DNA of 64,000 nucleotides from Eledone cirrhosa (taxonomy: Eukaryota). A model generated the notes under the pieces. That model was given only the letters and a program-made list of their open reading frames with translations. It had not been told where the DNA came from and searched no databases. Within the stretch, counting starts at the first letter, position 1. The number at the start of each line of letters is the position of its first letter. Location: NCBI GenBank assembly GCA_964016885.1, contig OZ024743.1, forward strand, positions 215,946,001-216,010,000. The letters run 5' to 3'. The position numbers and the translations under genes were made by a program. Positions 2,800-54,293 of this stretch are shown here, one piece after another.

Positions 2800-2844
2800 A
2801 GTCACTGATGAGGTTACAGAGTGTGTGACGAAAGGACTACGACT
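2800..2844 (+). ncRNA. Minimal Type I hammerhead ribozyme motif in PLE pLTR
   Basis: agtca-CTGATGA-g-gttaca/gagtg/tgtgac-GAAA-ggac-TA-cgact; homologue at 23858-23902(-) has perfect stem II gtcaca/tgtgac. Confidence 0.7.
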
Positions 2845-3007
2845 ATATATAAACAACTATCTGGATGTGGAACCATCCAACCAACCAGAAATGTATAAGT
2901 TTGTAGATTTGTAAATTATATATTTATAAATATATAATAAATTGAAGTGAAACCAACTGGTGCGTGTGTTCCTTATTGGCAACTTGACCCTCCCAAAGTA
3001 TAACAAT

Positions 3008-3585
3008 ATGCATATGTATATATATATGTATATATATATATGTATATATATATATGTATATATATATATGTATATATATATATATATACGTATTTATATA
3101 TATATGTATATATATATATATATATGTATATATGTATATATGTATATATGTATATATATATATATATGTATATATATATATATATATATATATGTATGTA
3201 TGTATGTATATATATATATATATGTATTTATATATATATATATATATGTATTTATATATATATGTATATATATATATATATATATGTATATATGTATATA
3301 TGTATATATATATATATATATATTTATATATATATATATGTATATATATATATATGTATATATATATGTATGTATGTATGTATATATATATATATGTATA
3401 TATATATATATATATATATATATATATATGTATATATATATATGTATATATATATATATGTATGTATGTATATATATATATATGTATATATATATGTATA
3501 TATATATACGTATATATATATATGTATGTATGTATATATATATATATATATGTATATATATATATATGTATATATATATATATAA
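3008..3585. repeat. (TA)n/(TATG)n microsatellite
   Basis: Direct inspection. Confidence 0.98.
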
Positions 3586-49409: not shown

Positions 49410-51460
49410 AAATTAAAACAAAATGAAAACGAAATTTCATTTCTCACTCTTAGTATGGCACTTACTTAAATGTAAGTATGCATGTATACGTACATACATA
49501 TATGTATACAGACGTACAGTAGCATGCACATATATACATATATATATATATATATATACACATATATATACATATGCATACAGGTACACATACATATATG
49601 CACGTATCAGTTTAGCGGCGCTAACGTCGCTTTGTTCGTTTGTAAACAAACTGAACAGCCTGAATTTATGCCATACGGTGTTAAGGCAACCACGTCACCT
49701 TTTTGTTCAACACTGACACAGGAACGATGTACTAGTTTCAAGCTTGTTAGCTATCATCAGCACCGTTTACCCATCTGCCAGATAGTTGAACGTTCGAAAG
49801 TATATACTTTCCTTATGAAAATTAACGGCTGAGCAGCCTAATTTGCATATTGAGTGAGTTAAATCGGTTAGGCATACCGAAAACGATAAATTAAAACAAA
49901 ATGAAAACGAAATTTCATTTCTCACTCTTAGTATGGCACTTACTTAAATGTAAGTATGCATGTATACGTACATACATATATGTATACAGACGTACAGTAG
50001 CATGCACATATATACATATATATATATATATATATACACATATATATACATATGCATACAGGTACACATACATATATGCACGTATCAGTTTAGCGGCGCT
50101 AACGTCGCTTTGTTCGTTTGTAAACAAACTGAACAGCCTGAATTTATGCCATACGGTGTTAAGGCAACCACGTCACCTTTTTGTTCAACACTGACACAGG
50201 AACGATGTACTAGTTTCAAGCTTGTTAGCTATCATCAGCACCGTTTACCCATCTGCCAGATAGTTGAACGTTCGAAAGTATATACTTTCCTTATGAAAAT
50301 TAACGGCTGAGCAGCCTAATTTGCATATTGAGTGAGTTAAATCGGTTAGGCATACCGAAAACGATAAATTAAAACAAAATGAAAACGAAATTTCATTTCT
50401 CACTCTTAGTATGGCACTTACTTAAATGTAAGTATGCATGTATACGTACATACATATATGTATACAGACGTACAGTAGCATGCACATATATACATATATA
50501 TATATATATATATACACATATATATACATATGCATACAGGTACACATACATATATGCACGTATCAGTTTAGCGGCGCTAACGTCGCTTTGTTCGTTTGTA
50601 AACAAACTGAACAGCCTGAATTTATGCCATACGGTGTTAAGGCAACCACGTCACCTTTTTGTTCAACACTGACACAGGAATGATGTACTAGTTTCAAGCT
50701 TGTTAGCTATCATCAGCACCGTTTACCCATCTGCCAGATAGTTGAACGTTCGAAAGTATATACTTTCCTTATGAAAATTAACGGCTGAGCAGCCTAATTT
50801 GCATATTGAGTGAGTTAAATCGGTTAGGCATACCGAAAACGATAAATTAAAACAAAATGAAAACGAAATTTCATTTCTCACTCTTAGTATGGCACTTACT
50901 TAAATGTAAGTATGCATGTATACGTACATACATATATGTATACAGACGTACAGTAGCATGCACATATATACATATATATATATATATATATACACATATA
51001 TATACATATGCATACAGGTACACATACATATATGCACGTATCGTTTTCGGTATGCCTAACCGATTTAACTCACTCAATATGCAAATTAGGCTGCTCAGCC
51101 GTTAATTTTCATAAGGAAAGTATATACTTTCGAACGTTCAACTATCTGGCAGATGGGTAAACGGTGCTGATGATAGCTAACAAGCTTGAAACTAGTACAT
51201 CGTTCCTGTGTCAGTGTTGAACAAAAAGGTGACGTGGTTGCCTTAACACCGTATGGCATAAATTCAGGCTGTTCAGTTTGTTTACAAACGAACAAAGCGA
51301 CGTTAGCGCCGCTAAACTGATACGTGCATATATGTATGTGTACCTGTATGCATATGTATATATATGTGTATATATATATATATATATATGTATATATGTG
51401 CATGCTACTGTACGTCTGTATACATATATGTATGTACGTATACATGCATACTTACATTTA
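49410..51460 (-). mobile_element. Retrozyme-like array: ~3.4 direct 478-bp units (49410-51041) plus an inverted unit (~51040-51460), flanked by (TA)n
   Basis: Identical ORF-track entries at 49423/49901/50379/50857; one HHR per unit; no coding capacity. Confidence 0.9.
49723..49767 (-). ncRNA. Minimal Type I HHR (copies 50201-50245 -, 50679-50723 -, 51160-51204 +)
   Basis: aacggtg-CTGATGA-t-agct/aaca/agct-t-GAAA-ctag-TA-catcgtt; 7-bp stem I, palindromic ACTAGT stem III, GUA site. Confidence 0.85.
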
Positions 51461-51815
51461 TATATATATATATATATATATATTTATTTATATATATATA
51501 TATATATATATTTATTTATATATATATATATATATGTATTTATATATATATATATATTTATTTATATATATATATATATTTATTTATATATATGTATATT
51601 TATTTATATATATATATATATATATATATATATATATATATATATATATATATATTTATATATTTATTTATATATTTATATATTTATTTATAAATATATA
51701 TATATATATTTATTTATATATATATATATATATATTTATATATATATATATATTTATTTATATTATATATATATATGTATATATATATATATATATATAT
51801 ATATATATATATAAT

Positions 51816-54293
51816 CCTTCGATAACGAATGACCATGGGTTTTGATTCAAGCTTATTCTCCGAGGCACAACCCTAGGCAATCTGATTTTTTTCTGAAGAA
51901 TAGCCGTTTCCCATGTATTCTAGACTTCTCTATCCACGGCAAATATGTTGTCCAAAGAAAGATTAAATGCTGAATCAGCTTGGCATCAATGACGTAATGT
52001 ACTCATTTCTACAGCTTAGTGAGCTTAAACAGCGTGGAATATAATGACATGCTCCACGATTAAATGCATTACACTACGCGCAACCACACCTATGTATATC
52101 GAGTGGGTTAATCGGGCGGGTGCTCTATGGCTTAATACTGGATGTTGGTTTACAAACACACCGAGCATTATAATAAATGTTCGGTGAAACCATACGTACA
52201 TATATATATGTGTGCATGTATGTATATATATATATACATACTACTGTACGTCTGTCTACATATATGTATGTACGTGTGCATACTTATATATATGTATATA
52301 CATATATATATATATATATATATATGAAGTAATTTCGTCGGAAAAGTCCAGGAAAAAAGAGTGCTCTATGTATGTAAAAGAGCTTAATAGTTATGTAATA
52401 AAAATTTATTACATAACTAAATATATATATATATATATATACACACACACACATATGTAGATATATATGTATACGAATGCATGTGATTGATTTGCGCACG
52501 TATCTATTTAGATATGGAAGTATCTATATACACGTAATAGCACACACCAGCGTTCAGGCAATCTCGCATGCATACATAAACTTACTCACAAAACACAAAC
52601 AAACACTCATACGTGCGTACACACACACACATATATATATAATTATATATATATATATATATATATATATATATATATATATATATATATATATATATAT
52701 ATATATATATATATATATATATATATATATATATACTTGGGGATGGTCTTATTTGTGTAATATTGCCACAATTAATAACAGAACACACTCACTGTTTGGT
52801 TGGTTTTCGCTTTTCCCTTCTGTGTCTTTTATGTCGGTAATCTAATTTATTCGGTCCTGAATGTTGCCATTGACTGACTAACGGTAAAAAATAATACAGA
52901 TACAATATAGACACAAACACATATATATAGTTTATCAAAGTTCTTTTGTTGCACATCTGCAACATCGTCAGTGGTGCTATTGTTTCCTCCCGTTGCATTG
53001 TATTTTCTACGCCATTAGCACCGCTGACGATGTTGCAGATGTGCAACGAAAGAACTTTGATAAACTATATATATGTGTTTGTGTCTATATTGTATCTGTA
53101 TTAGTTTTGACCGTTAGTCAGTCAATGGCAATATTCAGGACCGAATAAATTAGATAATATATATATATATATATATATATATATATATATAAAGAATGAA
53201 TAATAACAGGTAGACATCATAAAAAGGTAATTTATTCCGTTTCCGCCGTGGTTATACAGCCTAGTTATGCTATGTGCAAATTTATAACTATTTCCAAAAC
53301 TAATCAAATGCTGTTACCACTGTATCCTCAGAGCAGAATGGTTAAAATGTAAAATGTAAATCGCCTTAAGGGAATTATTGGGGAAGATAGAGTAGAAAAG
53401 GAAGAGAGAAGGAAAGGGACAGGGAGAGAGAGAGATATGCAGAGGTTGGAGAAGTGGTTTGTAGAATACAGATATCTTAATCAAAATGTTGTGGTAGGGG
53501 TTTCATTATACTGCTTACTCTCGAAGCGACAGCCTTAAGCGATGCGTTGATAGTTAAGGTTGGAATTATTTATTGCCACAGAGGGTAGGTTCTTAGAGGT
53601 GGAGAGGGAGAGAAGTGGACTGAGGGCGAACGATAGATAGAGAGAGAGAGGGGGGGATGGAGAGAGAGGAAGAGATAGAGAGAGGACAGACAAAGTTATG
53701 GGATGGGTGTACATTGAGTTCATAGTTGTAGGCTACAAGTGGCAGTTAAGTATCGATTTATAGTGACAAGCAGGGTATTGTCTTGTAGTGTGGGGGATAT
53801 AGTTAAGAAGTTGTTATTGAGAGAAGGTAGTTAGCGAGAAAGCAATGTTATAGTTACGGGTTCGAATGTTAAGTTAATTTATAGTGAGAGAATTTAGCCT
53901 TCAGTTTGTTGTTGCATTATAATGATCGCTCGATTCTGTCATTTAGTAATTTATTTTGGGATTTTAGGATGTAAAGAGCTACAGGTTACACGAGGATACA
54001 TTGGTAACAGCATTTGATAATTGAGTTTTGCAAATAGTTATAAATTTGCACGTAGCATAACTAGGCAGTATAACCACCGTGGAAACATTTGTAAGCAGAC
54101 GGAATAAATTACCTTTTTATGATGTCTACCTGTTATTATTCATTCTTTATCTCCATTCCGGAATACAGAAGGATCAGTAACTGAGTTTCTTCAACTATTC
54201 TTCCATAACTCGTTGAGTAACCCCTCACCGTACGTCAACACTATCCCGTGTAGTAATTAACCATTACTGCATCCAGGATAATCCTATACCTGA
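51816..54293 (+). repeat. Second copy of the ~2.5-kb composite segment
   Basis: See 44590-47068. Confidence 0.92.

Follow-up and report, generated by a model that had tools for sequence, protein, structure and literature searches.

The window analysed here is a stretch of 64,000 nucleotides of the genome of Eledone cirrhosa (assembly GCA_964016885.1, contig OZ024743.1, positions 215,946,001 to 216,010,000 of the forward strand), which carries hammerhead-like ribozyme motifs within Penelope-like elements (PLEs) and non-coding repeats. Its G+C content is 32%, and a mask assigned 12.8% of it to TA microsatellites, versus 5.9% in genome samples. An earlier note on this DNA had named twelve sites with hammerhead cores, which we labeled as families F1 (2.8/23.9 kb), F2 (16.1/19.6), F3 (19.9/20.0), F4 (20.3), F5 (21.7/49.7-51.2), F6 (29.3), F7 (31.8/32.4), F8 (42.1-53.0), F9 (43.3), F10 (44.1), F11 (46.1/46.8) and F12 (48.0). 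In our view, the window is probably a TA-rich patch of 5'-truncated and fold-back ends, in which eight coding PLE families and four tandem non-coding families carry predicted Type I hammerheads, and in which a bulged hairpin likely directs a Hydra-clade PLE enzyme to two start sites.

Hammerhead motifs and the repeat families that carry them

Our Type I descriptor accepted a C3-G8 or U3-A8 core, tolerated one extra base after A9 and allowed the helix II domain to reach 110 nt; a first strict version without the extra base overlooked minimal hammerhead forms. In the window, 14 copies from nine families passed. At a score of at least 18, we counted 12 matches in 55,135 non-TA bases, but only 0.3 on average (standard deviation 0.54, maximum 2) in 100 local dinucleotide shuffles, so that the shuffle control suggested by the earlier note came out in favor of the motifs. 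Its expectation that standard models would miss much of this material also held, since no match in an Rfam scan of the window reached the gathering score. At E<=5, the best 150 of 295 rows contained no hammerhead and included microRNA-type matches to TA repeats. Of 74 candidates scored in the genome, RF00163 matched 18, and none of these falls in the window. For non-circularly permuted hammerheads, a strict descriptor, which could miss rebuilt helices, found no match in the window; five such matches in 590 kb were unrelated singletons and were taken as chance.

At all twelve sites, the hammerhead-like core lies in a (TA)n-bounded repeat family, as had been claimed, and the conserved core (C3-G8 or U3-A8, GAAA, Type I strand order) is present in all twelve families, either in the consensus or in individual copies. 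However, no window copy of F2, F8 or F11 passes the descriptor. All three helices (I, II and III) are able to form in ten of the twelve families, in F11 only in genomic copies. The consensus of F2 has a helix I of a single base pair, and its 19.6 kb copy lacks three core bases. Helix I of F8 comprises two contiguous pairs, consensus included; all six copies between 42 and 53 kb fail, and in three of them the GAAA strand or a helix is damaged. The F11 copies at 46.1 and 46.8 kb and their duplicates each lack one end, but the family consensus is complete in genomic copies. Point changes explain why the F3 copy at 20.0 kb and the F5 copy at 21.7 kb are rejected. The statement that most of the elements have a palindromic stem III needs qualification: helix III is a strict palindrome in five families (F2 at 16.1, F6 at 29.3, F7 at 31.8, F9 at 43.3 and F5 at 49.7 kb) and a near-palindrome in four (F3 at 19.9, F10 at 44.1, F11 at 46 and F12 at 48.0 kb), but it is not palindromic in F1 (2.8 kb), F4 (20.3 kb) and F8 (42 kb).

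Covariation among genomic copies was clear for F3, in its helix II. Across 32 sequence-aligned copies, 92.7% of 672 cells pair and 36 cells are changed on both sides, counts that are inflated by the relatedness of the copies; none of 500 column shuffles reached as much, and slid controls pair at 37-54%. The F5 signal was weaker (3 cells changed on both sides; 8 of 500 shuffles). The count was made for these two families, the copies of most others being too alike. Folding calculations indicated long stable helix II domains in F6 (z -3.5) and F7 (z -2.5). In F2, an 8-base complement of the strand that follows the cleavage site sits in loop II (16088-16205, minus strand). It may be a substitute for helix I, with weak statistics: its value in shuffles, as the best of 26 clusters, was 0.03, and in one diverged copy the 8-bp match is disrupted without compensation. 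Among the F10 copies, we observed subfamilies with C3-A8 or U3-G8 instead of U3-A8 (L087, L158, L238, L308). Additional hammerhead families with helix II domains of 79-113 nt and palindromic helix III are present in L112, L120, L127, L155, L187 and L353.

Eight of the twelve families are truncated ends, that is pseudo-long terminal repeats (pLTRs), of protein-coding PLEs, six of them Hydra-type (F2, F3, F4, F6, F10, F11) and two Neptune-like (F1, F8). This agrees with the PLE context proposed before: genomic copies of these eight families have sequence that codes for reverse transcriptase (RT) or GIY-YIG on the same strand and upstream. Such coding was found at 12 of 25 loci for F2, 10 of 25 for F8, 6 of 25 for F11, 9 of 25 for F6, 5 of 20 for F10, in three of seven long stretches for F3, and for F1 in the window itself. 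For F4, locus L292 contains an open frame of 913 codons with DKT and CxCX5C between two ribozymes 4,781 bp apart. The genome searches returned at least 40 matches for each queried family (F1 and F5 were outside the query set). The Hydra-type families combine (TA)n insertion with a hammerhead in the pLTR, and DKT and/or CxCX5C occur in the frames of F2, F6 and F11; F3 and F10 are called Hydra-type from tblastn matches to these frames. F1 and F8 share the CX2-5CxxC linker of Neptune-like elements, a label that is based on motifs, and a GIY-YIG at the C-terminus (F1 frame 1652-2356), and the frames upstream of F8 are 54-71% identical to the F1 frame of the window. Pfam did not recognize the Hydra-type frames, and the Neptune-like RT appeared below the cut-off only.

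The remaining four families are tandem retrozymes without an open reading frame (ORF), with units of 478 (F5), 591 (F7), about 690 (F9) and 630 nt (F12) and one Type I hammerhead per unit. No same-strand upstream PLE coding was matched at 30, 25 and 25 loci of F7, F9 and F12, nor for F5. The autonomous PLEs with many non-coding parasites that the earlier note had envisaged are thus only in part what is found: with eight coding families and four families without an ORF, the ecosystem consists of coding families present mostly as stubs, together with four retrozymes. F7 is very young. Its copies are 99-100% alike, and the 40 best matches, which come from several contigs, differ by at most one base in 241; up to four units form an arm, 5' truncation varies between copies, and every insertion lies in (TA)n. 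No RNA run was listed for F7. Contigs of 620-621 nt (X3, X5) were rejected as expression evidence, since they are not separable from DNA carry-over.

Fixed 3' ends and the bulged tail hairpin

Each of ten families (F1-F4, F6-F11) has two 3' end sites, which were defined on these same data and which are 45-164 nt apart; of 554 distinct TA-bounded 3' ends, 550 are no more than 12 nt away from one of the sites of their family. The two arms of inverted insertions differ in the site used: 119 of 124 classified pairs combine a long with a short end, four are long-long and one is short-short (P ~2e-29 against 0.5). Nine pairs with an unclassified end are not part of the 124, nor is F5, for which the terminus counts were dropped because an internal microsatellite swamped the search. 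F12 differs from this pattern, with 29 of 30 ends at a single terminus and no inverted insertion at 20 loci. A one-sided tail is a known mark of PLEs that was earlier ascribed to endonuclease resolution (PMC11167929, PMC8557442), but in vitro its length is that of the interval between two internal starts of reverse transcription (PMC11167929). From the near-strict pairing of long and short ends, it seems that both ends of a single cut act as primers, each at one of the two sites. At 43969-43986, F9 (minus strand) meets F10 (plus strand) head to head without TA, via about 16 bases of inverted F9, and the outer ends are the short end of F9 and the long end of F10; this is possibly one insertion from two RNAs, of a retrozyme and of a Hydra-type PLE.

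When the tails were compared, we found a hairpin with a constant CUC:GAG stem of three pairs, a two-base 3' bulge and an upper stem that varies between families and yet remains paired. Its start is 8-13 nt beyond the short end in each of the nine families concerned, the Hydra-type F2, F3, F4, F6, F10 and F11 and the non-coding F7, F9 and F12, and at most 5 per 1,000 shuffled tails contain it for each family. It was absent from all 18 copies of the Neptune-like F1 and F8. Its specificity rests on the shuffled tails and on held-out families, and two held-out families with one end seen carry it. In F4, F6, F7 and F9, a shorter second hairpin was read by eye some 10-19 nt beyond the long end; none was seen in F8, and in F12, the family with one terminus, it is decayed. 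The hairpin can also be read in the published consensus of Hydra-2_Amil and Hydra-2_Ajap, from a coral and a sea cucumber (PMC8557442 file S7). It likely marks a reverse transcription start and would tie these retrozymes to Hydra enzymes.

Motif density and other elements of the window

The genome comprises 3.0 Gb and was sampled as 59 evenly spaced 10-kb pieces (590 kb). At a score of at least 22, this sample gave 45 matches, versus 1.55 in shuffles. Seven matches from a minisatellite (L131) are an artefact and were excluded from the density estimate, and the corrected density of about 62 motifs per Mb corresponds to 1.9 x 10^5 motifs genome-wide (bootstrap 1.1-2.7 x 10^5). The flanking 120 kb contain 22 matches (183 per Mb) and the window 13 (203 per Mb), and the motif count correlates with TA content (Spearman 0.56). 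The ribozyme cluster is therefore ordinary for this genome, the window matches its TA-rich surroundings, and the idea of a zoo of ribozyme parasites in one locus is exaggerated. All passing motifs in 1.8 Mb of genomic DNA group into 37-45 clusters, depending on which of two settings is used. Published counts, obtained with other descriptors, are about 9,000 motifs in Xenopus and 126,247 in axolotl (PMC4209133, PMC7229834).

Table 1. Coordinates of hammerhead motifs, tail hairpins and their host elements in the window
Feature	Position	Strand	Remark
F1 Neptune-like PLE remnant and pLTR	80..3009	+	RT frame 80-1651, GIY-YIG frame 1652-2356
F1 minimal hammerhead	2800-2844	+	element stops at short terminus in (TA)n
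F1 inverted two-armed copy	23706..24913	-	minimal hammerhead 23858-23902 (-)
F2 Hydra-type PLE, two inverted arms	15931..19746	-	minus arm with broken ORF 16809-18691, to long terminus
F2 plus arm	18700-19746	+	to short terminus; motif near 19587-19700 with core deletion
F2 hammerhead-like motif	16088-16205	-	90-nt helix II domain, without conventional helix I
F3 fold-back stub of Hydra-type PLE end	19809..20218	.	hammerhead 19851-19913 (-), mutated copy 20024-20086 (+)
F4 Hydra-type PLE stub	20273..21071	.	minus arm to short end; plus arm ~20973-21071, tail only
F4 canonical short hammerhead	20318-20361	-	first helix II pair broken
F4 tail hairpin	20978-20999	+	
F10-family fold-back stub	21102..21225	.	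3' half of ribozyme only
F5 relative	21521..21902	-	74% to 49.7 kb unit; hammerhead 21727-21767 with helix III mismatch
F6 5'-truncated Hydra-type PLE end	29230..29420	+	stops at short terminus
F6 hammerhead	29264-29383	+	91-nt helix II domain, palindromic helix III
F7 non-coding 591-nt tandem retrozyme	31475..32496	-	1.7 units; U3-A8 hammerheads 32306-32393, 31715-31802
F7 tail hairpins	31574-31634 and 32044-32060		
F8 inverted pair, ends of second Neptune-like PLE	41875..42711	.	weak minimal hammerheads 42067-42107 (-), 42437-42478 (+)
F9 non-coding retrozyme	43002..43969	-	unit ~630 nt plus internal (TA)n; 1.5 units
F9 hammerhead	43269-43345	-	48-nt helix II domain; tail hairpins 43638-43673, 43512-43529
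F10 5'-truncated Hydra-type PLE end	43986..44254	+	stops at long terminus; tail hairpin 44169-44192
F10 U3-A8 hammerhead	44055-44148	+	long helix III
F8 fold-back stub	45484..45904	.	motifs 45720 (-), 45773 (+)
F8 stub duplicate	52736-53155	.	motifs 52971 (-), 53024 (+)
F11 inverted pair, Hydra-type PLE ends	45963..47067	.	duplicated at 53191-54292
F11 hammerheads, 85-nt helix II	46107 (-), 46770 (+)		incomplete in both window copies
F12 non-coding 629/630-nt tandem retrozyme	47467..48374	+	1.4 units; hammerhead 48035-48116
F12 tail hairpin	47751-47772		second, decayed, 47842-47856; one 3' terminus used
F5 non-coding 478-nt tandem retrozyme	49408..51458	.	3.4 minus units and one inverted arm
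F5 hammerheads	49760, 50238, 50716 (-), 51167 (+)		without Hydra-type tail hairpin
Copies passing the Type I descriptor, F1-F6	2805+, 23897- (F1); 19905- (F3); 20355- (F4); 29269+ (F6)		
Copies passing the Type I descriptor, F7-F12	31797-, 32388- (F7); 43340- (F9); 44060+ (F10); 48041+ (F12)		
Copies passing the Type I descriptor, F5	49760-, 50238-, 50716-, 51167+		

A local duplication of about 2.5 kb (44588-47067 and 51814-54292; 94-98% identity) has copied several nested elements, so that the motifs at 45.8/53.0 and 46/53.3 kb do not represent independent insertions. Its two copies include an element that has about 70% of its 3' end in common with F5 (44588-45110 and 51814-52325, plus strand). 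In this element, only the first half of the core of a hammerhead is present, at 44667/51893, and it fits no descriptor tried. F10 fold-back stubs such as the one at 21102-21225 are very frequent (L090-L105) and stop inside the loop of helix II, so that half a ribozyme is left. A further Hydra-type PLE remnant (3585-6619, plus strand, frames 3765-5173), with relatives in L109 and L119, was matched by neither the hammerhead descriptor nor the hairpin pattern. The region 58763-63169 (minus strand) contains an open Helitron-type frame of 1,468 codons, in which Pfam identified Rep-like, PIF1 helicase and C-terminal ubiquitin hydrolase (UCH) domains. An abundant repeat of about 175 bp occurs at 14099-15045, 24943-25386, 35684-35915 and 55980-56147 and in many genome samples; a tRNA scan, which covered this repeat, returned no hit.

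Proposed insertion route, alternatives and comparison with known systems

The route that we propose starts with a PLE reverse transcriptase-endonuclease that would cut both strands of a (TA)n target, as the biology of the clade suggests (PMC11167929). Each DNA end would then prime inside the RNA, one at the short and the other at the long start site; the two fixed termini and the long-plus-short rule are shown at the DNA level, and the priming mechanism is what we infer. In Hydra-type elements, each start would lie about 8-14 nt 5' of a bulged hairpin, to which the protein may bind. The two cDNAs would stop early and be joined head to head, which would yield the stubs and palindromes that are observed. 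Hydra enzymes may copy the units of 591, about 690 and 630 nt in trans, with multimeric or circular RNA as the template, because F7, F9 and F12 keep both the hammerhead and the Hydra hairpin. Finally, multimeric transcripts would be cut into pieces of unit length by the ribozyme, which would mostly act as a dimer in families with a short palindromic helix III. Self-cleavage and the formation of circles are predicted here from what is established on hammerhead RNAs.

Several observations weigh against this interpretation. The hairpin pattern was drawn from the nine families it fits, and it is absent from F5. Among ten held-out families with two resolved ends, three carry it at about the same offset, one of these in only one of seven copies, and the seven without it are mostly without a clade label. 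In six newly published Hydra consensus sequences (PMC8557442), it is clear in two, partial in one and absent in one, and two sequences are too short. F3 is linked to its ORF by strand and by spacing rather than by a full alignment, the distance being about 1.8 kb in two loci. When single copies were folded, the full three-helix structure was the minimum-energy fold in only one of twelve (F10, 44.1 kb), as is to be expected of hammerheads whose helix III, a short palindrome, requires dimerization (PMC4209133). Despite their poor helix I, F2 and F8 are present in many close copies. In addition, hammerhead mutants did not impair in vitro insertion by an Anolis PLE (PMC11167929), and eight of nine Xenopus retrozyme dimers showed no cleavage (bioRxiv 10.64898/2026.07.22.740005). 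Since F2 and F8 have such copies with a poor helix I and the Anolis mutants insert, cleavage may not be needed.

These last observations also fit a scenario in which the hammerheads are carried along, inactive or nearly so, and the tandem arrays arise from template jumps on read-through RNA rather than from ribozyme-made circles. We regard this as somewhat unlikely, since core and pairing are retained, with compensatory changes, across families unrelated in sequence, and all four non-coding families have one motif per unit; except for the final cleavage step, it is compatible with the route proposed above. Less likely still is that the hairpin acts as DNA, the GIY-YIG endonuclease recognizing it in cDNA or element DNA and the ends being set by resolution cleavage. 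The Drosophila Penelope endonuclease does require the tail for recognition, the tail was earlier credited with a role in resolution (PMC11167929, PMC8557442), and genomic ends alone do not distinguish RNA from single-stranded DNA. On the other hand, the tail obtained in vitro matches two sites at which reverse transcription starts (PMC11167929), the hairpin is not within the copied part at the end that it marks, which fits a template signal, and the upper stems of F2, F4 and F11 contain G-U type pairs. The non-coding units might instead be satellites derived from old PLE ends and amplified as DNA by unequal crossover, with no retrotransposition in trans. The head-to-tail arrays, which reach four or more units, would suit such a process, and a route at the DNA level has been discussed (bioRxiv 10.64898/2026.07.22.740005), but near-identical copies, every one of them in (TA)n, are scattered over many contigs; their 3' ends are fixed, their 5' ends vary, and F7 and F9 have inverted arms. 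This insertion anatomy largely refutes the satellite origin, which we consider very improbable. Chance matches in AT-rich sequence do occur, as the seven false matches from the minisatellite illustrate, but as a general explanation they are refuted by the excess over shuffles (12 vs 0.3 in the window, 45 vs 1.55 in the genome sample) and by the covariation of F3, which leaves chance a negligible probability.

Returning to the preferred interpretation, a more general version of it appears to us evenly balanced between right and wrong. The hairpin pair may be a cis signal of Hydra-clade PLEs across animal phyla, with a dimeric enzyme binding both hairpins and priming one start per cut (TA)n end. 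Hammerhead circles that keep the hairpin would be mobilized in trans, and loss of one hairpin, as in F12, would lead to single-ended, non-inverted insertion. If true, this would be the first sequence-level rule for the hijacking of a PLE by animal retrozymes. A direct test in an existing in vitro format is possible with the hairpin, with the rule of long plus short ends and with F12 as a one-ended family, for which the open 913-codon frame of L292 is the candidate enzyme and natural templates are at hand. Hammerheads with a long helix II and an estimated 1-3 x 10^5 motifs indicate that standard models undercount these RNAs.

The minimal form of the hammerhead, its variants with an extra base after A9 or with a U3-A8 core, the presence of many families per genome and PLE-derived retrozymes have already been published (PMC4209133; bioRxiv 10.64898/2026.07.22.740005), as have Hydra elements in (TA)n (PMC8557442). 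Within the accessible parts of the literature, with subscription papers, Repbase and bioRxiv supplements outside the search, we found no earlier account of Hydra pLTRs whose helix II domains measure 85-91 nt, of paired tail hairpins, of the long-plus-short rule or of a cis element shared by retrozymes and one PLE clade. RNA recognition by PLEs, the one-sided tail with inverted arms and the mobilization of retrozymes are open questions in the field (PMC8557442, PMC11167929, bioRxiv 10.64898/2026.07.22.740005).

With the Hydra-clade PLEs (Craig et al. 2021, PMC8557442), the Hydra-type elements described here share DKT, the CxCX5C linker, a C-terminal GIY-YIG, the (TA)n target, a Type I hammerhead in the pLTR, insertions in tandem as well as inverted ones and a tail at one end. 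However, their units are longer (3.5-4.8 kb vs mostly <3 kb), their helix II domains reach 85-91 nt whereas published Hydra motifs have loops of at most 10 nt (file S2), F10 has a U3-A8 core, and the tails measure 80-139 nt vs 30-40 nt. For the paired tail hairpins, we found no counterpart described for the Hydra clade in the accessible parts of that source. With the metazoan PLE hammerheads (Cervera and De la Pena 2014, PMC4209133), the motifs have in common the extra base after A9, a short helix I, a helix II of 6-8 bp, U3-A8 covariation, a palindromic helix III, a large number of families per genome and the occurrence of neighboring motifs on opposite strands. They differ in their very long helix II domains and in number, about 1-3 x 10^5 compared with 2,000-9,000 obtained with a different descriptor.

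Like the non-LTR retrozymes (PMC7229834; bioRxiv 10.64898/2026.07.22.740005), the non-coding families consist of ORF-less tandem units (478-690 nt here), each unit bears a single Type I hammerhead, and the genome also contains PLEs. In contrast to the published retrozymes, three of the four share a cis hairpin with one PLE clade and have fixed ends of the PLE type, and they are known here from DNA. Anolis Poseidon (Frangieh et al. 2024, PMC11167929) likewise uses two start sites whose spacing equals the genomic tail, and both target strands are cut and extended. In vitro, Poseidon showed no difference between strands in the choice of start site, whereas each arm uses one site in 119 of 124 pairs here. 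Moreover, Poseidon starts inside a stem-loop that is AC-rich, whereas the start proposed here precedes the bulged hairpin.

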